Below, one piece after another: positions 1 through 63,587 of a stretch of DNA of 64,000 nt (its first letter is position 1; each line of letters begins with the position of its first letter). A program made the position numbers and the translations under genes. A model generated the notes under the pieces. The model made no database searches. It saw nothing but the letters and a program-made list of their open reading frames with translations, and was not told where the DNA came from. Source of the stretch: Candidatus Magasanikiibacteriota bacterium (GTDB taxonomy: Bacteria; Patescibacteriota; Patescibacteriia; Magasanikbacterales; UBA922); NCBI GenBank assembly GCA_014729395.1, contig WJJZ01000006.1:7090-71089 (forward strand), in the 5' to 3' direction.

Positions 1-1521
1 GTAAAGAAATCTTATCTGACCATCACAAATACCGCATTAACTAACAAGACTGTAGTAGGCGGTAGTACTGACGTTCAAGTGTACGAGGGTAAGCTGAGTG
101 CGGGAACATCCTCTGACATCAAGATTACTGAAATAGTGTTCAACACCTATGATGCCAGTTCTGATAATGAAGACACACTATTTAGTGATACCAACATCTC
201 ACAGCTAAGACTCTACATTAATGGTGTAATGGTAAAAGCAAAGAGTGGCTCTATTACTGAAGCTGCAAACGACACAAGTGACGGCTCCATGACATTTAGC
301 GCTCTAAATACCACCATTCCATCCGGAGATACTTATACCGTAAAGATTGAAGCTGACTTTGCTTCAAATCTTAGTGGTACAGGTGAGTTTGCTTTGTCAA
401 TACCAACCGCAGCCAGTGTAACAGCACGAGATCAAGATAATGAACTTCTTACCTCTAGCAATAAAAATACCGTAACTGAAATTGAGTCTAGAGAGGTTAC
501 TCTTGCTGCCACCGGTGATTTGTTGGTTGATATGCAAACCGATGGTACCAACTGGAATAGAGATTTATATCTCTTGGCCGGTAATGGTTACGCCGAAGAT
601 AGATATGCCGGTGAGTTATACTTCCGGGCTAAAAACGAAGATGTGCTGGTAGAAGATTTATATCTTGAAGTTACATCTACAACCAATGCCACTGAAGATG
701 ATATTGAATCAATTTCTTTGGTAGATGGTGACGGTGTTGTGGTTATGACTGAAGCTTTTGTCTCACCAACGACGACATTTGATAATTTGGATTATGTTGT
801 TGAAGCTGAGAGCTCACAATCATTGTATATCTTGATTAATGCTAAAGGTAGTAATGTAGACGGTGACCCATCATCTACTGCCACTGCCGGTCGTAGTATT
901 TCTCTTATGATTTACAATGTTGTGGCTCGTGGACAAGATACCGGTGACAGTATTAGTATGTCTTCAGGTTCGGATTCTCCTGCATTTGGAAGTTACGATC
1001 ATGTACGTGATACTGTTAGTTCCACAATTATGACCAGTGTTCTATCGAGCGCTGTCAATGCCATGTCTGACGGAACTTTGACAGGTGGAAACGGCAAAAC
1101 CGTTGGTAAATATACCTTTACCTTCGATAATGCCGACAACCGCAATAGTGATAACACAGTTGCTACTACCACATTGACCACATTGGTACTAAACTTCGCT
1201 TCTTCTACAAATGTAAGAGCAGACAATGTTCAAGCATATATTGAAGGCGACAGTACCAATAAGACTACCGCTGTATCAGTTGATAGTAATGGTGAAGCTA
1301 CCATTAATCTAACTACCCTAAGCGGTGATTCAGAGCAAGTTACAGGTGTAGTAACACTTGTGATTACAGCCGACGTTACCACTTCAGCTTCTGATGGAGA
1401 ATACCTCCAAACAGAAATTGATGACTTATCTACTGACTTTACATGGGTTGGTGGTGTAAGTAACGGTGGTGACAGCAAGCTAAAGATTTCTGAAGTTATC
1501 GGCGGTACTCTAAGTGAGTAA
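1..1521 (+). CDS. C-terminal part (ORF open at window start) of a large Thr/Ser/Asp/Asn-rich secreted surface protein with about three tandem ~100-aa beta-sandwich (Ig-like) repeats
   Basis: Frame 1 has no stop from nt 1. The GTG at 79 is only the first start-like codon, not a real N-terminus. Low-complexity T/S/D-rich repeats have a recurring pattern (L.L...G...Y.V.I.AD). The stop at 1521 is followed by a hairpin terminator. Confidence 0.5.
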   Translation, partial: VKKSYLTITNTALTNKTVVGGSTDVQVYEGKLSAGTSSDIKITEIVFNTYDASSDNEDTLFSDTNISQLRLYINGVMVKAKSGSITEAANDTSDGSMTFSALNTTIPSGDTYTVKIEADFASNLSGTGEFALSIPTAASVTARDQDNELLTSSNKNTVTEIESREVTLAATGDLLVDMQTDGTNWNRDLYLLAGNGYAEDRYAGELYFRAKNEDVLVEDLYLEVTSTTNATEDDIESISLVDGDGVVVMTEAFVSPTTTFDNLDYVVEAESSQSLYILINAKGSNVDGDPSSTATAGRSISLMIYNVVARGQDTGDSISMSSGSDSPAFGSYDHVRDTVSSTIMTSVLSSAVNAMSDGTLTGGNGKTVGKYTFTFDNADNRNSDNTVATTTLTTLVLNFASSTNVRADNVQAYIEGDSTNKTTAVSVDSNGEATINLTTLSGDSEQVTGVVTLVITADVTTSASDGEYLQTEIDDLSTDFTWVGGVSNGGDSKLKISEVIGGTLSE

Positions 1522-1575
1522 TTAGTTTAAACTCTTGAAGAACGAAAGTTGTTTAAGAATAAACTAAAAACAAAC

Positions 1576-1606
1576 CTCGCCCCCTACAAGGGGCGGGGTT
1601 TTGTTT
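1576..1606 (+). terminator. Rho-independent terminator (CTCGCCCC-loop-GGGGCGGGG then TTTTGTTT)
   Basis: GC-rich 8-bp stem with a T-run, about 55 nt after the stop of the 1..1521 CDS. Confidence 0.65.
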
Positions 1607-1642
1607 ATAATAATTCCACCATAATCAAACCATAATTACTAT

Positions 1643-1700
1643 ATAATTATTGTAAAATTATAGTCCAATTATCGTCTAATTATAGCCTAATTTTAGTAAA
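1643..1700. repeat. Four to five phased 11-bp direct repeats (aattatagtcc / aattatcgtct / aattatagcct / aattttagtaa)
   Basis: Read directly in the convergent intergenic region. The period is 11 bp, about one helical turn. Confidence 0.4.
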
Positions 1701-1760
1701 ATTATTGAATAAGTTCCCTCACCCCATCACCTCGCTCGGGCTTCGGGACAAACAAAAAAA

Positions 1761-1834
1761 CACCATTTATCTGGTGTTCTTTTGAATAGGCCGCACTCAT
1801 GAAGCTGGTTTTACCCATACTTCATAAGTGCGGC
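1761..1834 (-). terminator. Two hairpins downstream of the minus-strand giant lipoprotein gene (14-bp stem GGCCGCACTCATGAAG/CTTCATAAGTGCGGC at 1789-1834; CACCA-loop-TGGTG at 1761-1776 flanked by A/T runs)
   Basis: Inverted repeats read directly. On the minus strand the second hairpin is followed by a T7 run. It probably acts as a bidirectional terminator. Confidence 0.5.
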
Positions 1835-1867
1835 AGGCTTCCTCCTTCAACCCAACTAGCCTACAGG

Positions 1868-4800
1868 CTATATCGGGTTACATGTTGTTGATATTTGAAA
1901 CGGGGATGAGCGATTGTAGAGACCGTCTATTATAAAATAGTAAATAGTCCCACCCGTAGTCTGAAACTCCCAGGAATCGCTATACCCCCCGCTCGCGCCG
2001 GCGGCGTATTTGTCGGCCGAACAATCGGCAGCCAAAACGATAATGTCCACGTCATCAGTCATGTTGTCAATTGTCAGATTGACATTCATATCAATATCAG
2101 TCGTGAATACATACACTCGTTCCGGGCCGTTGTAGTTGACCAGGTTTCCACCGTAGTTTAATCGGTTATTCTCATAACCGATAGTGGAGCCGTTTACAAC
2201 CACTCCACACTCAACAATACCACCACCATACTCCGAGCCTTCGTAGCTCGTGGAGCAGACAGTATCGGAACCACTACATTCCAGAGTACCTTCGCCACAG
2301 GCGGCCTCAGTCTCCAGACAAGGATCAGCCGCGATGTTGTCTATCTCATCATCGCAGTCATTATCCTCGCCATCGCAGATTTCGTCGCTCGGATCAGGAG
2401 CATCGCAATCTACCCAGTCGCCCGAGTCATTGCAGTACTCCAGTCCGGACCCGCACAGACTACTACATTCACGAGTCAGGTTTTCGTCACCATCGTCGCG
2501 ACCATCGCAGTCATCGTCCAGGCCGTTGCAGAGTTCTTCGGGTTCGGGACCGCAGTCGCCGCAAGCGTTGCGTACACCCTCATCAACATCGCCATCGCAG
2601 TCATCGTCCAAGTTGTTACACTCTTCGCTCGATGGACGACCGGGGGTACAGGTACCTTCCGGCTGGCCGTTGACACAGCTGACCACTGCCGTGGCCTCGC
2701 ATTCGCCTACACCACATTCAATGGTATAGTCATCGAGACCTTCGTCAATGTCACCATCACAGTCGTCGTCCAGGCCGTTGCACTCCTCGTCAGACGGCGT
2801 ACCCGCCTCACAAGTGTTAACTTCCTCGCCGGCGATGCATACGATGTTGCCGACAGACGCGCACTCACCCTGACCACAAGTAGTCTCGGGTTCAGCCAAG
2901 TCTTCGTCGGTTTCACCATCACAGTCGTCGTCAAGTCCGTTGCACTCTTCGTTAGTGGGGGTGCCGGGTTGACAGCTGTCTACCATCTCGCCGTTTTGGC
3001 AAGAGAGTAGACCGGTGGAAAAGCACTCGCCTTCACCGCAGCCGGTTTCAGAATCCGGTATGTCTTCATCAGTCTCACCATCGCAGTCGTCGTCCAGACT
3101 ATTGCAGGCTTCTGCTTGACTACCGGGTTCTACCAGAGCTACGCAAACGGGCAAGGCTTCTTCAGCACAGATTTTCTCGCCGTCACGGCAAATGCCGAAA
3201 TTGACTTCAACCGTACAGGTATCGCCCAGTCCGGGCAATTCGTCGGTTTCACCATCGCAGTCATTGTCTTCGCCGGGATTGAAACAAGTTTCTTCTTCCG
3301 GAAGAACCTGCTCCAAACATTGCAGATCCCAAGTATAGTCTTCAAGACACACTTGGTATCCTTCTTGGCAAATTCCAATGCCGCGTGTCTCGGCCGACCC
3401 TTCATAACAGGTCTGGGTTTCAGGATCCTGATCGTCATATCGGCAAGGACAGTCCTCATCAACATGACCATCGCAGTCATCGTCCAGACCGTTGCAGGTT
3501 TCTTCCTGTGGGTCAACCGTTCCGACACAGGTGAAAGTCCGTACTTCATTTTCAGTGGTACAGACTTCGCGACCAATGCGGCAAATGCCGGTACTGGTGG
3601 TTCCGCATTCAGAAGGCTCATCACCGGGTTCAACCGGTGGGTTGCCTTCATCCACCAGGCCATCGCAATCGTCGTCGCGGCCATTGCAGAGTTCTATTGC
3701 CCAGGGGTTGACCTCCGGGTTTGATTCGTCGCAGTCGGCTTCACCAAAGAAGCCATCCTGGTCAAAATCTTCTTCCGGACATGGTACATCCCCGGCCAGA
3801 CAATCTTGATCCAAGCCGTCACCACAACGTTCCGGAGCACCCGGGTACATGGTGGGATCGTCGTCATTGCAATCGGCTGAAAAATCGTACCCGTCCCGGT
3901 CACTGTCATTTTCAGGACAGGCCAGGTCTTCACCGTCGCAATCCTGGTCAATGCCATCACCACAAAGTTCCGGAGCATCGGGGAAAATTCCCGAATCAAA
4001 GTCGTTGCAGTCGGCCTGGGTGACCCAACCATCGCGATCAACGTCATCTGGCCATTCCGTAGTCGCAAAAATGCCGTCGCAGTCCTGGTCAATACCGTCA
4101 TCAGGAATGTCTTCGGCATCAGGATGAACGGAGTTGTCGTAGTCGTTGCAATCCCGTATGGAATCATGTTCGGCATCAGCATAGTAGCCGTCTCGATCTT
4201 CATCCCGCTCATACAACGGATTATCCGCTCTCCCGTCGCAGTCGTTGTCCATTTCGTCGATGACTTCCGGTGCTCCGGGGTATACCAGAGCGTTTTCATC
4301 ATTGCAGTCAAGGATGGCTATCCAGCCATCATTATCAGCGTCGGTCTGGTCGCAAATCAAGTCCTCACCATTGGAATCCTCATCAACTCCGTTGCTGCAG
4401 AAGCAGGGTCGGTTTTCAAAGGAAGTCGGTTGGTAAGGGTGAATATCTTGCGCCTTGGTACTGTCAAGTGCTTCAGAACAAATGATGGACACCCCGGGAT
4501 CGTCCAGATAAATCCGGTACTTCTCTTGAAGAGTGTCGTCATTGTCCTCTGCGTCATTGAAATTCGATCGGAGTGAGTCGTCCAGGTTTTCACAGCAACC
4601 GGGAACAGTCTCACCGGTATCATCAAGACAATGGTAGAAGCTGTCCCCATCCGAGTCGCATTCCGGTCGGTATTCTTCGAGCTGAATGGAAAATTCTTTG
4701 TTCTTTTTCACATTCAGCCTTCCGGAGTAGGTAGCAATTATATCGCCACCGGAGGACATACCTACAATATGCAAATAAATGACAGTACTTTGTGACGAGT

Positions 4801-5059
4801 TAATTCCGACATCAACGGGGTCAACCCTAATGTCGTTCTCAAATCCCGAAAATTCCTCCACTTCAGAGTGGATCTCTCGGTAATTGCCTTCTTCATCCTC
4901 TTTTTTGATAAGAAATCTGAGAAGGACGATTTCTTCAGTATCGATGCCAGCTTCCGCGCTAACATGAAGGATAAACGGATACTCCTCGTCTCCGCAGCCA
5001 ACGATACTTGCAAAAAAGGCCAATCCAAGAATACAAAGAGTGGTTTGTCTAATGCTCAT
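1868..5059 (-). CDS. 1063-aa secreted Cys/Asp-rich repeat lipoprotein. It has an N-terminal lipobox-type signal (..ASIVGC). Residues ~240-470 carry five MopE-like putative metal-binding motifs (DC(N/D)D...PGAPE...D.DCDG) with Asp-rich Ca-binding-like loops. Residues ~458-905 carry eight to nine ~55-aa Cys-rich repeats centred on ECNGLDDDCDGETDE. The C-terminal ~120 aa form a pre-peptidase-C-terminal (PPC)-like beta domain.
   Basis: Long ORF with a strong SD (AGGAGGTG) before the ATG at 5059. Motifs were read from the translation. GC and codon usage (GAC/TGC/GGC) are clearly higher than in neighbouring genes. Confidence 0.7.
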   Translation of the reverse strand: MSIRQTTLCILGLAFFASIVGCGDEEYPFILHVSAEAGIDTEEIVLLRFLIKKEDEEGNYREIHSEVEEFSGFENDIRVDPVDVGINSSQSTVIYLHIVGMSSGGDIIATYSGRLNVKKNKEFSIQLEEYRPECDSDGDSFYHCLDDTGETVPGCCENLDDSLRSNFNDAEDNDDTLQEKYRIYLDDPGVSIICSEALDSTKAQDIHPYQPTSFENRPCFCSNGVDEDSNGEDLICDQTDADNDGWIAILDCNDENALVYPGAPEVIDEMDNDCDGRADNPLYERDEDRDGYYADAEHDSIRDCNDYDNSVHPDAEDIPDDGIDQDCDGIFATTEWPDDVDRDGWVTQADCNDFDSGIFPDAPELCGDGIDQDCDGEDLACPENDSDRDGYDFSADCNDDDPTMYPGAPERCGDGLDQDCLAGDVPCPEEDFDQDGFFGEADCDESNPEVNPWAIELCNGRDDDCDGLVDEGNPPVEPGDEPSECGTTSTGICRIGREVCTTENEVRTFTCVGTVDPQEETCNGLDDDCDGHVDEDCPCRYDDQDPETQTCYEGSAETRGIGICQEGYQVCLEDYTWDLQCLEQVLPEEETCFNPGEDNDCDGETDELPGLGDTCTVEVNFGICRDGEKICAEEALPVCVALVEPGSQAEACNSLDDDCDGETDEDIPDSETGCGEGECFSTGLLSCQNGEMVDSCQPGTPTNEECNGLDDDCDGETDEDLAEPETTCGQGECASVGNIVCIAGEEVNTCEAGTPSDEECNGLDDDCDGDIDEGLDDYTIECGVGECEATAVVSCVNGQPEGTCTPGRPSSEECNNLDDDCDGDVDEGVRNACGDCGPEPEELCNGLDDDCDGRDDGDENLTRECSSLCGSGLEYCNDSGDWVDCDAPDPSDEICDGEDNDCDDEIDNIAADPCLETEAACGEGTLECSGSDTVCSTSYEGSEYGGGIVECGVVVNGSTIGYENNRLNYGGNLVNYNGPERVYVFTTDIDMNVNLTIDNMTDDVDIIVLAADCSADKYAAGASGGYSDSWEFQTTGGTIYYFIIDGLYNRSSPFQISTTCNPI
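2345..3690. repeat. Intragenic tandem DNA repeats of ~150-170 bp (eight to nine copies) encoding the Cys-rich ECNGLDDDCDG modules of the giant lipoprotein
   Basis: Recurring ...catcgcagtcgtcgtccaggccgttgca... blocks near 2511, 2600, 2756, 2912, 3080 and 3470. Confidence 0.6.
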
Positions 5060-5236
5060 ATTGCACCTCCTATATTTGAATGAGCGTGTTATGGTTTATG
5101 TATACAATAACACAAAATAATAGCATATTTTAGCTATTAAGTCAAATTTGTGAAGCTTTTGTCTAGTAGATAAAAAATACCTAAATTAAGGAAAAAACAC
5201 CACAAATAGCGGTGTTTGGTGGACTTATTATGTTTT

Positions 5237-6031
5237 TTAAAGCGAAAAACATTTTGCCATAAGATGAAATTGACCGGCGCGGCCGGATGAACCGTCGACA
5301 ACAATGTAATAAAGAGTGTTTGGTTCAATGGTTAGAAGCCATTTATCTTCATAGTTTTCTGATTGTCCTCCACCAATAAAATTTCCAGAACAGCTTTCAT
5401 CAAAAATAAATACATCCAACTCTTCATCTATACTATATAAACTTAGTTCCAAACCCCTCTCATGGGTACTTTTAAAAGCATATACACTTTCCGGTCCATC
5501 GTATGCAATTCGAATCGGAGGGTAACTACTAATATTATTTGGGTTATCTACAGTTGAAGAAATTTCTTCAATATTACAATTCAGCACTTGGCCGATAAAA
5601 TCAGAACCTCCGAATTGGCTGGAACAAATTAGATTACTTTCTTGACATTCTTCTACACCCTCACCACAAGCAGAATTTTCTTCCAGGCAGGGCATGGGTT
5701 CCACATTATCAATGATTCCGTCGCAATTATCATCAAAATCATTACACGATTCTTTTTGACATTCATGTGATAAATTTTCTTCATTTTGGTCACTATTATA
5801 ATTCGGTGTATGTGTATCGGGTGATGCATCATCTTGCAACGAGATATCATTATTTGATGAGTCTTCAATAGTTTCGTTTATATCCATACTCACACAATGT
5901 CCATAGTGACAAACACTATCGTCCGGGCAGTCATCTCTTGAATTGCAAGTCATTTTTTGTGTATCGTTACAAGCAAGAACAAGCAATACCGACACTATCA
6001 AGACAAAAGTATTGAGTTTTATTTTATTCAC
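5237..6031 (-). CDS. 264-aa secreted lipoprotein (signal ..LVLAC). It is a small paralog of the giant lipoprotein, sharing one Cys-rich CDG-type module and the C-terminal PPC-like domain (Y.GPE.VY.F...D....C....GG....YY...DG).
   Basis: GTG start at 6031 preceded by AGGAGGTG. The C-terminal 110 aa align by eye with the C-terminus of the 1868..5059 product. Codon usage is the normal AT-rich usage of the host. Confidence 0.6.
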   Translation of the reverse strand: MNKIKLNTFVLIVSVLLVLACNDTQKMTCNSRDDCPDDSVCHYGHCVSMDINETIEDSSNNDISLQDDASPDTHTPNYNSDQNEENLSHECQKESCNDFDDNCDGIIDNVEPMPCLEENSACGEGVEECQESNLICSSQFGGSDFIGQVLNCNIEEISSTVDNPNNISSYPPIRIAYDGPESVYAFKSTHERGLELSLYSIDEELDVFIFDESCSGNFIGGGQSENYEDKWLLTIEPNTLYYIVVDGSSGRAGQFHLMAKCFSL

Positions 6032-6183
6032 CTCGCACCTCCTTTGGAAAAGAACAGTTGATTATCTAATTTTAACATCTGCCTATCATGTGTCAACATA
6101 GTACTAATATTTTCCAAATGGTTTGACTGAAAAATGCTATTCATGAGATAATACGGCCGTCAAATTATTTTTTATAAAATTTT

Positions 6184-8217
6184 ATGCATCGAAAAATAGA
6201 ACTATTGATAAAGGGGTTGATAGGGGCAAGTTTTATAATGCCTTTGATAGTAATTCCTTCTTCATATATATTTCCTTTTATTGTGCCAAAAATCGTCTTT
6301 TTTAGAACTTTGGTTCTAATAATGCTTGCCGCTTGTATTATTTTGTATGCAACGAATTTTAAAAAATATAAGACCGAATTTACACCAATCAATATAATTG
6401 TTGGATTGTTTTTTATAAGTTTTGCCATATCCACTTTTATAGGGGTGGATTGGTATAGGAGTTTTTGGGATAATCACGAAAGGATGCTTGGACTTTTCAC
6501 TATTTTTCATTATGTGGTTTTTTACTATATAGTCACTACTTTTATAAAAGAGTGGAAAGATTGGAAATGGCTGCTAAGACTATTTCTATTTACAGGATCT
6601 ATTGTAATGGTTATTGGTTTTTGGCAAAAATTAGTAAATCCGGAATTTCTTCTAAATCAAGGTAGTGGTCGTGTTTCATCAACTTTGGGGAATGCAATTT
6701 ATTATAGTGGATTTGGTCTGTTTTTAGCAGCGATAGGATATATTCTTGCGATAAAAGAGAAAATAAACACTGAATGGTGGTGGTATGCTGTTGTTGGTGC
6801 TGTTATCGGTCTTTTGGGAATGTTTTTAGGTGGGACGCGTGGTACATTCTTAGGTTTTCTGTTTGGCTTAATGGTACTAATTATTTCCTACCTTTTTACA
6901 ATAAGAGGACACAAGAAAGTTAAGCAAGTTTTAGCTGGAATCATGATTATTGGTGTTATTGTGATTGGGATAATGTATATTTATAGAGATACTGATTTTG
7001 TAAGAGATTTTCCGGCACTGGGAAGAGTTGTTAATATTTCTTTAAGCGGTGGCGGAGTTGAGACCAGGTTGATGGCATGGGATATTGCTGTAGAAGCATG
7101 GAAGGAAAATCCTGTCTTGGGCTGGGGACCGAATAATTTTTATTACGCTTTCAATAAATATTACAGACCTGAATTTTTGGAATATGGATACCAAGAAACT
7201 TGGTTTGATAATGCTCATAGTGCAGTATTAAATACATTAGCTGTTCAAGGTTTAGTCGGTTTGATTTTCTATCTGGGATTGTTTGCAATACCGCTATATT
7301 ACACATGGAGGAGTTACAAGAAAGACAAAATCGATGGTCATAGTTTGGGTATTATAAGCGCATTTTTGGTGGCTCATTTTATTCATAATGCTTTTGTTTT
7401 TGAAAATCCAACTTCTTATTTATATTTTTTCTTATTTTTAGCTTTTGTTAATTCCAGGGTTAGTAATGAAAAGAAAGAGGTTGAGGCATCCAAGCCGATT
7501 TCCATAGGCCTGAGTGTTACAGTTAGCTTGATAATATTATTGTTAATTTACTCAACAAATTATTATCCGGCCAAAGCAAACAAAATGAATTTGAATGTGA
7601 TCAGAGGACTTTATAGTGGGGCTGATATCGTTTCCTTGTATAATGAGGCCAGTGAAGTGCCAACACCACATATTGATGATATTAGGAATGATTTTGCCAG
7701 GACATCAGCTCAAGTTTTACCCAGTTATTTTCAAGGCGGTCAAGCTCAGGCCGGGATGAAAATTTTCGATTTGGCTTATGATGAGCTTAATAAAAATTTT
7801 TTATTGCATCCGGCAGATATAAGAATTCATATTCAACGAACACAGTTGTCTTTGCTGGGTGCGCAGATTAAACAAGACAAGAGTTACTTGCTTGATGGTG
7901 AAAGAATGCTGGAAGAAGCTTTGGAGTACTCCCCAAAAAGACAGCAAACTCATTATATGTTGTCTATTATAAAAGTTGAACTTGGAAAGACTGATGAGGC
8001 TATTGCCTTACTTCAAGACACCATAGAAGATAATCCGAAAGTCGGCGAGGGTTGGTGGAGGTTGGCTGTAATCTACAGAGATTCCGGGAATTTGGAAGAA
8101 GCAAAAAATGTATTACGCGAGGCAGAGGAGTACGGAGCCAGATTCAAAAAACAGGGACAAAATATCAAGAACGAAATATTATCTACGCCTGATCCAGAAG
8201 AGATCGATACAAACTAA
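6184..8217 (+). CDS. O-antigen ligase/polymerase-like (Wzy_C/WaaL family) polytopic membrane protein with C-terminal TPR repeats
   Basis: About 10-12 TM helices and a periplasmic loop with a W..NP.LGWG..NF motif typical of the O-antigen ligase family. The C-terminal ~200 aa are TPR-like. Confidence 0.55.
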   Translation: MHRKIELLIKGLIGASFIMPLIVIPSSYIFPFIVPKIVFFRTLVLIMLAACIILYATNFKKYKTEFTPINIIVGLFFISFAISTFIGVDWYRSFWDNHERMLGLFTIFHYVVFYYIVTTFIKEWKDWKWLLRLFLFTGSIVMVIGFWQKLVNPEFLLNQGSGRVSSTLGNAIYYSGFGLFLAAIGYILAIKEKINTEWWWYAVVGAVIGLLGMFLGGTRGTFLGFLFGLMVLIISYLFTIRGHKKVKQVLAGIMIIGVIVIGIMYIYRDTDFVRDFPALGRVVNISLSGGGVETRLMAWDIAVEAWKENPVLGWGPNNFYYAFNKYYRPEFLEYGYQETWFDNAHSAVLNTLAVQGLVGLIFYLGLFAIPLYYTWRSYKKDKIDGHSLGIISAFLVAHFIHNAFVFENPTSYLYFFLFLAFVNSRVSNEKKEVEASKPISIGLSVTVSLIILLLIYSTNYYPAKANKMNLNVIRGLYSGADIVSLYNEASEVPTPHIDDIRNDFARTSAQVLPSYFQGGQAQAGMKIFDLAYDELNKNFLLHPADIRIHIQRTQLSLLGAQIKQDKSYLLDGERMLEEALEYSPKRQQTHYMLSIIKVELGKTDEAIALLQDTIEDNPKVGEGWWRLAVIYRDSGNLEEAKNVLREAEEYGARFKKQGQNIKNEILSTPDPEEIDTN

Positions 8218-9424
8218 TTGTTCCTTCAATAAATTTATCAAAATCAGAATTCAAATTATTATACGCTTGAGCTGCATAGTTTTGCAGCTCTTGTTTATTT
8301 TGAAGAGCAAATTCAATTTTTTTATTTAAAACTTCGGGATTATTGGGTCGGCAGAGTAATCCGGTTTTTTTATCTTGTATGAGAGAACCAATACTCCCAA
8401 CGTCAGTGGCAATAATGGGAATTTTATAATTGATGGCCTCAAGGATAGTATAGGGCAGACCTTCTTTTCTGGATGGTAGGACAAACAGGTCAAAAGCCGG
8501 GAAAAGTTTGTAGGCTTTATCTATAAAGCCCGGAACTTCAACAATATTTTCAATTTTGGAATTTGATATTTGTATTTTGGAATTTTTGTATTCCGGGCCA
8601 TTGCCGATGATGACAAATTTTATATTTTTTGGAAGTCGATCTTTTTTGAGTGAAATAGCCTCTAATAATATATCGATACCTTTGGTTGGATAAAAATTGG
8701 CGATTGTGCCTATTAAAAAAGTATCTGACTCAATTTTATTTTTTAAAAAAGTATTCAGTTTTTTTCTGGCTTCTTGTTTTTTAAATTTATGTTTCGGCGG
8801 CTTAATTGCCAGCTTAATTAAGTCTAATTTTTCCGGTTTTATTTTTAAAATGTTTTTAGCATCAGAGAAATCTTTGTCTGATAGAGTTATGATTTTATCT
8901 TTAAATCGAGCTGTAAATTTTTCCGATGATTTGTAAAGACATTTTTTTAGTTTTGGTATTGGTTCATTAAAGACCCAGCCGTGAGCAGTGTAGACAATGA
9001 ACAGTGAACAATGAACAATGAACAATTTTGCGACTGAACCCAAGATGCCCGCCTTGGAGCTGTTTAAGTGGATTATATCCGGTTTTGTTTTTTTGTATAA
9101 TTTTTGTAATTCCAAAATTGCCAGTAGATCTTTTATTGGTGATATATGTCTAACTAAGTATTCAAGTTGAACTATTTTTATTTTTTGTTCTTTGTTTATT
9201 GTTCTCTGTTCATTGCCTGCCCTGAGCGAAATCCTGCCCTGGCGGGACGAAGTCGAAGGGTTAGTTGCTAGTTGTTTTTGTAAGTCAGTTTTGCCGTTTT
9301 TTTCACCCACAGCTACGGTAATATCAAAATATTTGTTTAAATTTACCGCCAAATCAAAAACATAACGCTGGGCGCCGCCCCAGTGACCTTGAGTGATTAT
9401 GAATAGGATTTTTTTCTTTTTCAT
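8183..9424 (-). CDS. GT4-family glycosyltransferase
   Basis: N-terminal ILFI...GGAQRYV, ...SSKAGILG...YTAHGW and C-terminal EGLPYTILEA...P.IATDVG motifs. Its 3' end overlaps convergently by 35 bp with the 6184..8217 CDS. Confidence 0.75.
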   Translation of the reverse strand: MKKKKILFIITQGHWGGAQRYVFDLAVNLNKYFDITVAVGEKNGKTDLQKQLATNPSTSSRQGRISLRAGNEQRTINKEQKIKIVQLEYLVRHISPIKDLLAILELQKLYKKTKPDIIHLNSSKAGILGSVAKLFIVHCSLFIVYTAHGWVFNEPIPKLKKCLYKSSEKFTARFKDKIITLSDKDFSDAKNILKIKPEKLDLIKLAIKPPKHKFKKQEARKKLNTFLKNKIESDTFLIGTIANFYPTKGIDILLEAISLKKDRLPKNIKFVIIGNGPEYKNSKIQISNSKIENIVEVPGFIDKAYKLFPAFDLFVLPSRKEGLPYTILEAINYKIPIIATDVGSIGSLIQDKKTGLLCRPNNPEVLNKKIEFALQNKQELQNYAAQAYNNLNSDFDKFIEGTISLYRSLLDQA

Positions 9425-9439
9425 GGTGTTTAGAAATGA

Positions 9440-9468
9440 TTGACTTATTAGCTGAATTATAGCATAAT
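9440..9468 (+). promoter_or_regulatory. Sigma70-type promoter TTGACT-17 nt-CATAAT upstream of mtnP
   Basis: Hexamers and spacer counted directly. Lies in the divergent region between the GT4 gene (-) and mtnP (+). Confidence 0.5.
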
Positions 9469-9509
9469 ATATCTGCCTAAATTTCGCAATATTTAGCTAA
9501 TTTTAGTTT

Positions 9510-10259
9510 ATGGTAAAAGTAGGTATAATTGGTGGATCAGGTTTGGAGGATCCGGATTTGCTAAAAAATATTCGAATTTTAAAAATCAAAACTCAATATG
9601 GGAAACCATCTTCATCTTTAAAAATTGGTAAAATAAATAATGTAGATGTGGTTATGCTTTCGCGGCATGGATCAGGGCATACAATTACACCATCCGGGGT
9701 AAATTACAGAGCAAATATATATGCCTTAAAGCTTCTGGGCTGTACTCATATCATTTCAACAACAGCAGTTGGTTCATTACGTACTAAAATACAAAGAGGT
9801 GATATTGTAATATTGGATCAATTTATTGATTTAACAAGATTCAGGACAATTACTTTTTTTGACAGGTTTAAACCACATAAAGCAAAACATACTCCTATGT
9901 CACAGCCTTTTTCTCCGTCATTAAGAAATTTTTTGATAGAAACAACACAAGAATTAGGAATTAAATTTCATGATAAAGGAACAGTTATAACTATCGAAGG
10001 GCCTAGATTTTCAACAAAGGCTGAGAGTTTAATGTTTCGGCAATGGGGGGCAGATGTTATTAATATGTCAATTGCTCCCGAAGTAATCTTGGCCAATGAA
10101 ATCGGTATTCCATATGCTTCCATTGCCATGAGTACGGATTATGATTGTTGGAAAGAGGGTGAAGATCCTGTGTCTTGGGAAGCTATAGTTGATATTTTTG
10201 AAAAGAACGTGGAAAAGGTTAAAAAAATTTTAATAAATACAATTTCTAAAATTAATTAA
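9510..10259 (+). CDS. mtnP: S-methyl-5'-thioadenosine phosphorylase (MTAP-type purine nucleoside phosphorylase)
   Basis: Near-collinear similarity to MTAP along the whole length (KIGIIGGSGL, YGKPS, LSRHG..HTI.PS.VNYRANI.AL, GADVINMS..PE, AMSTDYDCWKE). Confidence 0.85.
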   Translation: MVKVGIIGGSGLEDPDLLKNIRILKIKTQYGKPSSSLKIGKINNVDVVMLSRHGSGHTITPSGVNYRANIYALKLLGCTHIISTTAVGSLRTKIQRGDIVILDQFIDLTRFRTITFFDRFKPHKAKHTPMSQPFSPSLRNFLIETTQELGIKFHDKGTVITIEGPRFSTKAESLMFRQWGADVINMSIAPEVILANEIGIPYASIAMSTDYDCWKEGEDPVSWEAIVDIFEKNVEKVKKILINTISKIN

Positions 10260-10793
10260 ATGAATAAGATAATAAAACAAAAAATAAGGACAATTCCAAA
10301 TTGGCCTAAACAGGGGGTAATGTATAGGGATGTAACGACCTTATTTAAGGATAGGATTGGTTTTAAAATGGTAATAGATACTTTATTTGATAGATATAGA
10401 GAAAGTTCAATTGATTCTGTGGTAGGTATAGAGTCAAGAGGTTTCATTGTAGGTTCTGCAATTGCAGAGAGACTTGGTGTCGGTTTCGTACCAATAAGGA
10501 AATCAGGCAAGTTGCCGGCAGAGACAATCGGTGAAGAATATGAGTTGGAATATGGTAGGGATAAAATAGAAATTCATAAAGATGCAATATCAGAAAAAGA
10601 TACTGTTTTATTAGTTGATGATTTAATTGCAACCGGCGGTACAGCATTAGCGGCATGTTCACTTTTAGAAAGATTAAAAGCTCAGATAAGTGAATGTGTT
10701 TTTATAGTAGACCTACCAACTTTAGGTGGAAGCAAGAAATTATCAGATAAAGGATTTGGGGTTTTTAGTTTAGTTTCTTTTGATGGGGAATAA
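10260..10793 (+). CDS. apt: Adenine phosphoribosyltransferase
   Basis: PRPP-binding motif VLLVDDLIATGGT and the typical 177-aa length. The start abuts the mtnP stop. Confidence 0.85.
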   Translation: MNKIIKQKIRTIPNWPKQGVMYRDVTTLFKDRIGFKMVIDTLFDRYRESSIDSVVGIESRGFIVGSAIAERLGVGFVPIRKSGKLPAETIGEEYELEYGRDKIEIHKDAISEKDTVLLVDDLIATGGTALAACSLLERLKAQISECVFIVDLPTLGGSKKLSDKGFGVFSLVSFDGE

Positions 10794-10808
10794 TAATTAA
10801 TAGTATAT

Positions 10809-11744
10809 ATGAATATTTTGATTACCGGAGGAGCCGGCTTTATCGGTTCTCATTTATGTGAAAGATTATTGACCGAAAAACATAAAATTTTTTGTTTGGA
10901 TAATTTGTTTACAGGTTCAAAAGATAATATAAATCATTTAGAAAATAATCCAAATTTTAAATTCATTGAGCATGATATAATTGAGCCTTTTTTTATTGAT
11001 CAAGATCTTGACCAAGTATATAATTTGGCCTGTCCGGCTTCTCCAATTCATTATCAAGAAAATCCGGTAAGAACCATTAAAGCCAATACTATCGGCGTTA
11101 TTAATATGTTGGGTCTAGCCAGAAAACATAATGCAAGAATATTACAAGCCTCCACTTCCGAAGTTTATGGTGATCCGGAAATTCATCCACAACCGGAGGA
11201 TTATCGTGGAAATGTAAATCAAATTGGACCACGAGCCTGTTATGACGAGGGAAAGCGGGCGGCCGAAGCCTTATTTTTTGACTATCATAGGATGCACGGG
11301 ATGGAAATAAAAGTTGCTCGTATTTTTAACACCTATGGATCCAGAATGGCTTTTGAGGATGGCAGGGTTGTGTCAAATTTTATTTTGCAATCTTTAAAGG
11401 GTGAGAATATTACAATATACGGTAGCGGTGAACAGACAAGAAGTTTTTGTTATATAGATAATTTGGTGGATGGTTTGATAAAAATGATGAATAGTCCAAA
11501 AGAAATTACAGGACCAATAAATTTAGGTAATCCAAATGAATTTACAATAAAACATTTGGCAGAAAGAGTAATTAATTTAACCGGTTCAAAAGCTAAATTA
11601 GTTTATAAGGATCTACCTCAAGACGATCCACAAAAGAGACAGCCAGATATTAACAAAGCCAAGGAATTTTTGGGTTGGTCACCAAAGATTGATTTAGTAG
11701 AAGGTCTTGAGAAGACGATTGAAGATTTTAAAAATAGATTATGA
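10809..11744 (+). CDS. UDP-glucuronate decarboxylase (UDP-xylose synthase, UXS type)
   Basis: Very close full-length match to UXS enzymes ([56 protein letters not shown]...[31 protein letters not shown]). Confidence 0.85.
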
Positions 11745-63080: not shown

Positions 63081-63587
63081 CTAGGCAGCCTTCATCTCAT
63101 CCCCGAACGACTTTTTGATTTCGAGAACGATCTTCTCGAGCAGGTCGTTCGTATCGACATCAATATACATTCGACCCTTTTCGTCGCAAGGTAGTGTTAC
63201 AACTGTCGATTCGTAGATCGTCAGCTGGTAGTGTGCCTTGCGAACTTTTCCCTGTGGGACAAACTTTATTGTTGCCCCGTGTCCGGCCAGAATGAGCAGC
63301 AGTTCGATCTCTCGGTATGTTTCGCCAAGAAGTGAAACAACTTCCAGATCACTGCTGAAGTCATCCACCAGAGATTCAAACATCTCGTCGTCAATCATGG
63401 GGATGAACGGGTCATTCGAGTAGGCGCGGAAGCGTTCGGGTTGGCTCTCGGCTCTTTGCCCATGCGGAATCAGGAGCCAGTGACTGAACCATTGTGAGTC
63501 CTCGGCATAGAACTCTATGCGCAAGCTGTTGTTGATCCAGGCTGCGAGGAAAACCAAAATTTTACGTTTTCTGTTGTCCCTGTCCAT
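63081..63587 (-). CDS. 168-aa hypothetical protein in a GC-rich (~48%) patch. No recognisable family.
   Basis: Clear ORF ending in TAG. Composition is sharply different from the flanking tkt and infB regions. Confidence 0.45.
   Translation of the reverse strand: MDRDNRKRKILVFLAAWINNSLRIEFYAEDSQWFSHWLLIPHGQRAESQPERFRAYSNDPFIPMIDDEMFESLVDDFSSDLEVVSLLGETYREIELLLILAGHGATIKFVPQGKVRKAHYQLTIYESTVVTLPCDEKGRMYIDVDTNDLLEKIVLEIKKSFGDEMKAA

Follow-up and report, generated by a model that had tools for sequence, protein, structure and literature searches.

A question raised by the locus described here is how an AT-rich genome of the Candidate Phyla Radiation (CPR) came to hold a GC-richer gene for a large lipoprotein full of cysteine and aspartate, and what that lipoprotein may do at the surface of the cell. 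The DNA that was analyzed (the window) comprises 64,000 nucleotides of contig WJJZ01000006.1 from a Candidatus Magasanikiibacteriota bacterium (assembly GCA_014729395.1), and the gene in question, GF349_01890, lies at 1868..5059 on its minus strand. The explanation that we favor, with a confidence somewhat above even, is that GF349_01890 encodes a lipid-anchored, extracellular, acidic protein of the PF11617 family that was acquired horizontally, or by xenologous replacement, from a lineage of ~45-55% GC, and that would act as a Ca2+ rod with a binding head rather than as a MopE-type Cu(I) protein.

The open reading frame (ORF) is an intact, complete coding sequence that starts with ATG, ends with a stop codon at 1868-1870 and specifies 1063 amino acids, and its product is 100% identical to the hypothetical protein GF349_01890 from a 107-kb contig of a Candidatus Magasanikbacteria metagenome-assembled genome. 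The GC content of the gene is 0.516 and its GC content at third codon positions (GC3) is 0.517, versus a mean GC3 of 0.289 for the other long ORFs in the window, which agrees with an initial annotation of this stretch that had described a gene of about 50% GC with GAC- and TGC-rich codons among native neighbors. When synonymous codons were resampled from the native codon table for the gene's own amino acid sequence, the expected GC3 was 0.278 +/- 0.013, which places the observed value at z = 18, while the same statistic for 50 other genes in the window ranged from -2.5 to +2.4. Thus, the comparison of GC3 with other genes that the annotation had proposed singles this gene out, and its composition is atypical beyond what amino acid content explains. 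The shift toward C-ending codons spans Asp, Cys, Asn, Thr, Ser, Pro, Ala, Ile and Val; GAC accounts for 54% of Asp codons (22% in native genes), TGC for 57% of Cys codons (21%) and AAC for 61% of Asn codons (18%). For Leu, TTA falls from 37% in native genes to 2% and CTG rises from 7% to 38%, and CCC for Pro and TCC/TCG for Ser are also raised. High GC3 extends along the entire gene (0.40-0.60 in 60-codon bins), and the DNA of foreign composition covers approximately 1700..5060, with a GC content of 0.41-0.61 per 100 nt. The native spacers that border this segment (1601-1700 and 5060-5236) have a GC content of 0.20-0.29 per 100 nt, the upstream intergenic region 5060-5236 being 29% GC, and the borders of the GC-rich island coincide with the ends of the gene.

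The gene also occupies an unusual position relative to related genomes. On its left is the 3' part (1..1521, plus strand) of a gene for a Thr/Ser-rich surface protein of ~1200 amino acids (SURF), and on its right, beyond a second lipoprotein gene (5237..6031, minus strand), is a gene for a protein with Wzy_C and TPR domains (6184..8217, plus strand). The latter is conserved in the 80 further related loci that were retrieved with the Wzy_C/TPR protein, and 34 of these loci also contain SURF. In 34/34, SURF (~1200-1300 aa) lies upstream of the Wzy gene on the same strand; there is nothing between the two genes in 18 loci (gaps of 4-355 nt), one small same-strand ORF in 9, and more in 7. An opposite-strand pair of MopE/PPC lipoprotein genes between SURF and Wzy was found only in the window and in one syntenic contig, L003 (GCA_964433095.1), and a hidden Markov model (HMM) of the C-terminal domain that was run across the related loci matched only in these same two. 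Because the 34 other loci with SURF and Wzy lack the MopE/PPC pair, the two lipoprotein genes on the opposite strand represent an insertion, specific to the lineages of the window and L003, that separates two genes conserved as a pair. The order in L003 is a Wzy_C/TPR gene, genes for a 328-aa and a 576-aa lipoprotein, a convergent gene for a 1217-aa surface protein, followed by the glycosyltransferases and epimerase that are also seen in the window. Between the window and L003, identity is 47-71% for flanking orthologues (68.6% for SURF), whereas the cassette proteins are 31-41% identical and unlike in architecture. The L003 contig is 46% GC, and the GC3 of its cassette genes is only slightly raised (0.58-0.62 versus ~0.50). 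Composition and locus comparison are direct evidence of a foreign origin, and the horizontal acquisition that the initial annotation had read from codon usage is sustained by the GC3 outlier, by the absence of the insertion from the 34 related loci, and by the family members outside the CPR, which track the GC3 of their hosts.

The protein itself is a succession of modules, all encoded on the minus strand. Its N-terminus supports the secreted lipoprotein of the initial annotation as a prediction: the signal peptide MSIRQTTLCILGLAFFASIVGC (aa 1-22; 4994..5059) fits a PROSITE-type lipobox rule, and the regular expression [LVI][ASTVI][GAS]C (PROSITE PS51257-type) matches MSIRQTTLCILGLAFFASIVG followed by C22 (IVG/C22), which would make Cys22 the lipidated residue. 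A membrane-proximal domain (aa 23-135; 4655..4993) has no Pfam match and is common only to three proteins, P0048, P0036 and P0069, at 30-33% identity, and a linker rich in Cys and Asp (aa 136-237; 4349..4654) is common to the same three at 33-46% identity. Motifs and HMM then identify five full MopE-type (PF11617) units (aa 238-483; 3611..4348), each consisting of a DxDxDG loop, DC[ND][DE], a PGAPE-like turn and a D[QND]DCDG core, as summarized by the pattern DxDxDG..DC[ND][DE]..P[GDW]A.[ED]..D[DQN][DN]C[DL][GA]. These are the five repeated motifs that had been annotated, the fourth of them being degenerate (DQDCLA). They are followed by Cys modules (aa 484-909; 2333..3610), delimited by motif and repeat analysis, in which a Cys-rich hairpin segment precedes C-x3-D-D-D-C-D-G-x-x-D-E, the C-terminal half of PF11617; the hairpin is structurally predicted for aa 496-512 only. 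Eight to nine such modules of ~55 residues had been claimed, and the count of eight stands, but their lengths vary (53, 71, 59, 54, 54, 54, 30 and 51 aa) and only three, at aa 667-828, are canonical 54-aa copies. A four-Cys knot of 35 residues (aa 910-944; 2228..2332), which has low model confidence and is kept in the neighboring gene, P0162, P0180 and P0213, leads into a C-terminal beta-sandwich that resembles PPC and collagen-binding domains (aa 945-1063; 1871..2227).

The motifs are present far above chance. There are 13 D[DNQ][DN]C[DL][GAD] cores (0.04 expected from shuffled sequences) and 16 DxDxDG matches (0.39 expected), the latter substantiating the Asp-rich, Ca-binding-like loops of the initial annotation. 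The Pfam PF11617 model, a proposed check on that annotation, scores 186.4 bits against a cutoff of 27 (E 7.6e-56) over 8 stretches. GF349_01890 is therefore a new member of the large, experimentally uncharacterized PF11617 ("MopE-related") repeat family, and >6000 homologues were found. A TSP3 domain, for which an HMM search had also been suggested, is not among the Pfam matches of the protein; NCBIfam has no match to GF349_01890 or the neighboring lipoprotein, and Pfam searches with the isolated C-terminal domains and with the N-terminal domain returned nothing at E <= 1. The mature protein contains 166 Asp, 116 Glu, 9 Lys and 30 Arg residues, giving a net charge of approximately -244 and an Asp+Glu content of 27%. 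Besides the lipidated Cys22, it has 78 Cys residues, an even number with room for up to 39 disulfides. Tandem Repeats Finder detected no DNA-level tandem repeats in the gene, and direct DNA repeats within it are only 60-86% identical; the modules are thus old, and a recent internal amplification is ruled out.

What the repeats bind is suggested by what they conserve. The invariant columns across 21 homologues are Asp and Cys positions, and the D-x-D-x-D-G-x-x-D cores provide clusters of carboxylates that fit calcium sites. The C-rich domain of Teneurin-4 (7PLP) binds three Ca2+ ions with TSP3-like and LDL-A-like geometry and contains three disulfides, its Ca2+ ligands being E835, D840, D843, N844, D845, D847, D851, D854 and D856 (PMC9058538). 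Its core D-N-D-G-D-G-x-x-D lines up with D-D-D-C-D-G-x-x-D of GF349_01890, so that the more general core D-[DN]-D-x-D-G-x-x-D matches Teneurin-4 positions D843/N844/D845/D847/D851. An alignment of PF11617 with the teneurin core was published by Tucker et al. (PMC3278476), and the motifs of relatives found through the C-terminal domain match 7PLP by profile (E 1.3e-4). Teneurin C-rich, TSP3 and LDL-A modules resemble those of GF349_01890 in being short, disulfide-locked and Asp-rich with little secondary structure, and the model of the repeats is confident while being nearly without helices or strands (predicted local confidence, pLDDT, 89.7 overall and ~90 for aa 337-540; predicted template-modeling score, pTM, 0.77). 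Unit structure and the invariant Asp and Cys positions are shared with PF11617 proteins of Myxococcota, Bradymonadia and others. These relatives occur mostly in large-genome, higher-GC bacteria, whereas GF349_01890 is a lipoprotein of foreign composition in a CPR genome, and none of its best 120 matches carries a PPC-like C-terminal domain. Calcium is a better-supported ligand for the repeats than copper.

The C-terminal domain offers a second functional lead. Its model has a pLDDT of 80-97 over the beta-sandwich, and the best Foldseek match was 5SV5, the PPC domain of a B. anthracis collagenase (E 2.4e-5; template-modeling score, TMt, 0.73), with further matches to 1NQJ (TMt 0.75) and to the collagen-binding domains of ColG and ColH; across 5SV5, 1NQJ, 3JQW and 2LUW the fold of aa 945-1063 was matched with E values of 2.4e-5 to 1e-3 and TMt of 0.65-0.75. 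A family profile of the domain matched 2LUW (E 1.1e-7), 5IKU (5e-4) and 5SV5 (6e-3), and in the relatives P0213, P0133, P0122 and P0145 the aligned region scores above the PF04151 cutoff. At the level of fold model and profile, the domain is thus a divergent PPC/collagen-binding fold, and the PPC-like domain of the initial annotation is upheld at that level, though not by any Pfam PPC match on the protein itself. At E <= 1e-3, the profile built from the two C-terminal domains in the window retrieved 1147 representative proteins, in which the domain is a terminal or tandem binding module and is often repeated many times. The version in GF349_01890 differs from these PPC domains in having no attached peptidase, in being preceded by the four-Cys knot, and in being bracketed by conserved Cys residues. 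In collagenases, PPC-fold modules serve as binding domains, and claudin is bound by the related fold of the C. perfringens enterotoxin. The family as a whole lies near or below the Pfam PPC threshold, includes proteins of 1000-3000 aa with as many as 10 copies of the domain, and shows the consensus elements GPE..Y.F, LD[LV]F[VL] and YY[IV]VVDG. Two small secreted proteins, P0136 and P0183, consist of two or three tandem PPC-like domains followed by a dockerin-like segment.

One arrangement would accommodate these features. GF349_01890 belongs to a two-gene cassette inserted between the conserved surface-protein gene and the Wzy_C/TPR gene, and its product would be tethered to the cytoplasmic membrane by Cys22. 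Each of the five MopE units and of the eight Cys modules may bind Ca2+ through its invariant D-x-D-x-D-G-x-x-D carboxylate clusters, and disulfides may lock the Ca2+-loaded units into a rigid rod that is largely without secondary structure. Such a rod would hold the PPC/collagen-binding-type beta-sandwich away from the cell, where this C-terminal head may bind an external ligand as an adhesin, plausibly a host cell or a polymer. To judge from the sequences compared, the fast divergence of the cassette and its non-homologous replacement in another locus would fit proteins that are exposed to the outside.

Several observations weigh against this explanation. No donor or close relative (>50% identity) of GF349_01890 was found in the homologue searches, and there is no integrase, transposase, tRNA or flanking repeat at the insertion site; the insertion also lacks Rfam elements, long inverted repeats and direct repeats at its flanks, and a recognizable mobile element is thereby ruled out. 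The window contains no ribosomal-protein genes that could serve as a control for translational selection. Residues 902-1063 have no match to Pfam PPC (PF04151) even at E <= 1. A profile of the protein's own 13 motif copies finds nothing in the PDB, so homology with teneurin, TSP3 or LDL-A is not claimed and the comparison serves as a working analogy; HMM and structural searches likewise gave no match of the protein to the TSP3, LDL-A or teneurin C-rich families. MopE* loses its weak binding in Cu(II) immobilized metal affinity chromatography (IMAC) when its first 24 residues, an Asp-rich stretch with the start of the motif, are removed (PMC3423442), and some copper affinity of the carboxylate clusters is possible. 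Finally, we found no metal-binding, localization or binding experiment in the literature for multi-repeat PF11617 proteins.

An extension of the favored explanation concerns the site of the insertion rather than the gene alone. At the SURF-Wzy junction of a further locus, L062, an opposite-strand gene (5590-7290, minus strand) encodes a 566-aa lipoprotein with 65 Cys residues, 21% Asp+Glu and a GC3 of 0.58 versus 0.36. This protein has Dicty_CTDC (PF00526) repeats plus a TSP3-like DxDxD stretch and is not homologous to GF349_01890 (BLASTP E 0.2), in which respect it differs from the L003 cassette; both nevertheless share with GF349_01890 the same slot, the opposite strand, a lipoprotein signal, richness in Cys and Asp, and a GC3 excess. 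Genes with MopE repeats also adjoin Wzy_C genes in L004, L089 and L090. In L004 (Candidatus Falkowbacteria, JABHMO010000043.1), a multi-gene GC-rich island at 1728-10883 (GC3 0.54-0.69) includes three consecutive Cys-rich ORFs, one of which encodes a 1463-aa MopE-repeat protein, and is directly followed by a native Wzy_C gene (GC3 0.30). In L090, a gene for a 1442-aa MopE protein (12-4340, plus strand; GC3 0.61) lies directly upstream of a Wzy_C gene with a GC3 of 0.39. Elsewhere, L023 encodes a PF11617 protein with a GC3 of 0.83 versus 0.40 (2-1102, plus strand), and L087 encodes a Dicty_CTDC protein with a GC3 excess of +0.16 (1-876, minus strand). Since the L062 slot holds a non-homologous GC-rich lipoprotein and MopE genes adjoin Wzy_C genes elsewhere, the slot beside Wzy_C genes repeatedly receives foreign, physically similar proteins. 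We suggest only tentatively that the SURF-Wzy_C/TPR junction is a dedicated exchangeable slot that independent transfers fill, in different lineages, with non-homologous but physically alike proteins (lipid-anchored, disulfide-rich, Ca2+-binding acidic rods with binding domains at the tip), the gene in the window being a recent swap. Such a slot would be a host-attachment or surface-recognition module, and its GC-richer donors would possibly be hosts or prey-type bacteria such as Myxococcota. The neighborhood of Wzy_C genes in general may act in this way.

A different view, which we regard as doubtful, is that the foreign protein is a Ca2+-loaded rod but not an adhesin. It would then be a structural or cation-buffering component of the envelope, such as a polyanion that holds divalent cations, a spacer for S-layer-like proteins or a mineral nucleator, and its PPC-like domain would fix it to the glycan or the surface layer of the same cell. 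The net charge and high Asp+Glu content given above are what such a role would call for, PPC-fold domains do bind polymers, and the setting is suggestive: the gene lies within a >50-kb envelope-glycan cluster, between the S-layer-like SURF gene and the Wzy_C/TPR gene, and MopE-repeat genes adjoin Wzy_C genes in five CPR loci. By Pfam matches, 9510-55339 is mostly one envelope-polysaccharide region with many GT4 glycosyltransferases, epimerases, two UDP-glucose/GDP-mannose dehydrogenases and a Bac_transf initiating transferase, as well as an inositol monophosphatase, an APS kinase, a PAPS-reductase-domain protein, a subtilase with FG-GAP repeats and a PBP transpeptidase. The APS kinase and PAPS-reductase-domain genes suggest that the glycans are sulfated. 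The Wzy_C family includes O-antigen ligases and protein O-oligosaccharyltransferases, and by such family membership the conserved SURF-Wzy_C/TPR pair may be a unit of a surface glycoprotein plus an O-oligosaccharyltransferase or ligase. The cassette, however, is missing from most relatives that have the SURF-Wzy pair, which argues against a core envelope component, and its divergence relative to the flanking genes, together with the non-homologous substitute in L062, is a pattern typical of outward-facing proteins.

It is improbable that the protein is a MopE/CorA-like extracellular copper-scavenging or copper-chaperone protein whose repeats are copper sites. The notion stems from the Pfam name of the family, Cu-binding_MopE, and from MopE* being the only solved relative of the repeats, and it draws some strength from the weak Cu(II)-IMAC binding noted above for the first 24 residues of MopE*. 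Residues 339-381 of GF349_01890 align with MopE* residues 6-48 (2VOV; E 1.3e-4, or 8.5e-9 with the family profile), and the match is limited to that segment. MopE and CorA (2VOV, 2VOW, 2VOX) are, like GF349_01890, secreted or surface-associated, but a single PF11617 unit in MopE compares with 5 full and 8 half units in GF349_01890. In MopE*, His132, His203 and kynurenine130 form the high-affinity Cu(I) site, the matched segment is invisible (disordered) in the crystal and distant from this site, and Ca2+ protects MopE* from proteolysis (PMC3423442). PF11617 moreover covers just a small region of MopE/CorA (PMC6189053). With the Cu(I) site outside the PF11617 region and so small a part of MopE/CorA covered, the family name is no justification for a copper function. 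GF349_01890 lacks any region equivalent to the Cu(I)-binding beta-sandwich core that carries these three residues. Its 1063 residues include only 8 His, 7 Met and 7 Trp, none of which is conserved in the units, and no His falls at a conserved motif position. The conserved ligand-like residues are instead carboxylates in DxDxDG arrays, which are typical of Ca2+ sites, and Pfam scans of the window revealed no genes for copper-dependent enzymes near GF349_01890. The initial annotation had called the repeats a putative Cu/metal-binding motif; of this, the copper label is poorly founded, and the broader metal-binding idea survives with calcium as the candidate.

Turning from ligand to origin, we consider it similarly hard to sustain that the gene is native and that its C-ending codons result from selection (for very high expression, or for accurate translation of critical Asp, Cys and Asn codons) or from a bias intrinsic to the family. 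The enrichment is indeed mostly in C-ending codons (GAC, TGC, AAC, ACC, GCC and ATC), with GAG little changed (0.34 vs 0.29), and the lack of ribosomal-protein genes as an expression control leaves this view some room. In a survey of 77 CPR loci with 763 ORFs of >= 150 aa, the 13 ORFs that were Cys-rich (>= 4% Cys), 13/13 of them acidic, averaged +0.158 above the median GC3 of their locus, versus +0.003 (standard deviation 0.054) for the other 750 ORFs, so that Cys-rich acidic ORFs as a class are GC3-raised in CPR loci, a pattern that also counts in favor of a foreign origin. MopE-repeat genes are part of this trend: GC3 is 0.54 in L004, in the island next to native genes at 0.22-0.30, 0.61 in L090 against a background of 0.38-0.49, 0.58 versus 0.34 in L067, and 0.58 versus 0.49 in L089. 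Outside the CPR, by contrast, family members track host GC3, with differences of approximately -0.07 to +0.18. P0048 has a GC3 of 0.486 in a 47% GC contig; P0069 has a GC3 of 0.885 in a 70% GC contig whose genes for an FHA-GAF-sigma54 activator, a Ser/Thr kinase, PrkA and OmpA give it a myxobacteria-like neighborhood; a Woesearchaeota homologue is at 0.48 with neighbors at 0.47-0.59; and the family genes of the high-GC loci L005-L009 are at 0.73-0.95 over a background of 0.72-0.88. The GC excess is therefore not intrinsic to the family. In addition, the neighboring lipoprotein gene contains the same domain types and uses native codons (GC3 0.258, 24% GAC and 27% TGC), the S-layer-like SURF gene next door is also native (GC3 0.31), the shifts from TTA to CTG for Leu and toward CCC for Pro and TCC/TCG for Ser look like another mutational background, and the cassette is an insertion relative to the 34 related loci.

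The gene might also have come by descent. Vertical inheritance from an ancestor shared with the L003 lineage, with a higher GC content retained and no recent transfer, would account for a cassette that sits in L003 at the same position and with the same orientation. It would also account for the codon usage of GF349_01890, whose highest correlation is with L003 background genes (r = 0.84), the window's own genes giving r = 0.54. We consider this very improbable. The mutational bias that holds 50 other genes, including the cassette partner, at a GC3 of ~0.29 should have ameliorated GF349_01890 equally, so it cannot have resided in the genome for as long as they have. The protein and P0162 differ in length and architecture and are 34-41% identical, compared with 47-71% for the flanking proteins, and the N-terminal 600 residues of GF349_01890 have no counterpart in L003; P0162, with 576 aa, has neither the five full MopE units nor the N-terminal domain. 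The history that needs the fewest assumptions is that GF349_01890 was acquired recently, or arose by xenologous replacement, inside a cassette that is older, and the correlation with L003 codon usage makes a mid-GC CPR relative a candidate for the immediate source.

The alignments show that the acquired protein is itself composite. The best non-self matches cover parts of the protein at 29-50% identity. P0048, P0036 and P0069 align collinearly with residues 1-610, and residues 238-610 are collinear, at 38-44% identity, with ~1000-aa proteins of Myxococcales and relatives (P0077, P0080, P0085, P0101 and others). Residues 456-1063 are collinear with the CPR protein P0162, which, like P0159, was reached with the profile of the window's two C-terminal domains. 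The protein is thus a mosaic in which the N-terminal two-thirds resembles proteins of non-CPR bacteria and the C-terminal third a protein of the syntenic CPR relative, and because GC3 is uniform over both parts, the mosaic is older than the transfer. The link to myxobacterial proteins that the initial annotation drew therefore applies to the N-terminal part; the gene as a whole is not simply myxobacterial, and no donor was identified. A word-indexed search of 5.8 billion proteins with the C-terminal-domain alignment returned the neighboring gene only. A contig scan with the same alignment gave six loci, matched by the Cys-rich part only through the ubiquitous D-D-D-C-D-G pattern, and was uninformative for the C-terminal domain. 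Within L003, the 3' parts of P0159 and P0162 (7087-7386 and 9057-9356) show 100% DNA identity over at least 300 nt, and ~225 amino acids are identical, which could be due to recent gene conversion, duplication or assembly collapse.

Least probable of all is an assembly chimera in which a GC-rich segment of another organism was joined in error: the source is a metagenome-assembled genome, and analogous GC-rich ORFs in L067, L087 and L089 lie at the ends of retrieved loci or contigs, but the segment lies inside a 107-kb contig and is flanked at either end by native DNA and syntenic genes, its borders fall in spacers with promoter-like and terminator-like signals around an intact ORF, homologous genes occur at the same place in syntenic L003, and comparable internal islands are found in the independent assemblies L004, L023 and L062.

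The rest of the locus adds some detail on the partner gene and the borders of the insertion. The neighboring lipoprotein (GF349_01895; 5237..6031, minus strand) is encoded by an ORF of 264 aa with a GTG start and has a lipobox, VLA/C21, that fits the PROSITE-type rule. It has 15 Cys and 25 Asp residues and contains one half-motif, the Cys knot and a PPC-like domain shared with GF349_01890 (33% identity over 168 aa, E 4e-32). GF349_01895 was deposited as 238 aa from an internal Met, 26 aa shorter than the GTG ORF, and since the upstream GTG adds a signal peptide with a lipobox, the deposited start is probably wrong. Upstream of the GF349_01890 start, two overlapping sigma-70-like promoter matches (5117..5154, minus strand), identified by consensus, lie in native AT-rich DNA, and a terminator-like hairpin follows the neighboring gene (5195..5217, minus strand), which suggests that the two lipoprotein genes are separate transcription units. 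Between GF349_01890 and the convergent SURF gene, whose frame is open from base 1 and which is cut by the start of the window, is a strong bidirectional terminator-like hairpin with a 12-bp stem (1572..1601). An AT-rich array of at least 5 copies of an 11-nt periodic unit (TAATTATnGTnnAA-like) occupies 1622-1705, at the edge of the foreign segment between this terminator and the 3' end of GF349_01890. A second, small GC island is present at the far end of the window, where a 168-aa ORF (63081-63587, minus strand) has a GC content of 0.495 and a GC3 of 0.607 versus the window mean of 0.29. The local GC content there is 0.45-0.58 between flanks of 0.24-0.35, and the ORF has no significant Pfam match, the best being ACT_AHAS_ss (E 0.015; 15.9 bits against a cutoff of 27).

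The lifestyle usually assumed for CPR bacteria is one of attachment to other cells, and their contact proteins are scarcely known. GF349_01890 is a clear, datable case in which a CPR genome has imported the gene for a large extracellular protein, and imports of Cys/Asp-rich surface proteins recur at the same place next to envelope-glycan genes. The gene in the window, its native-GC paralogue, P0159, P0162 and the L062 protein are therefore candidates for attachment or surface-recognition proteins. For the family at large, the name Cu-binding_MopE, carried by thousands of automatic annotations, rests on a segment outside the MopE copper site, and Ca2+-dependent structural rigidity is a better working hypothesis for the >6000 homologues. 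The confidently predicted fold of the repeats has no solved counterpart and would define a new small-module fold.

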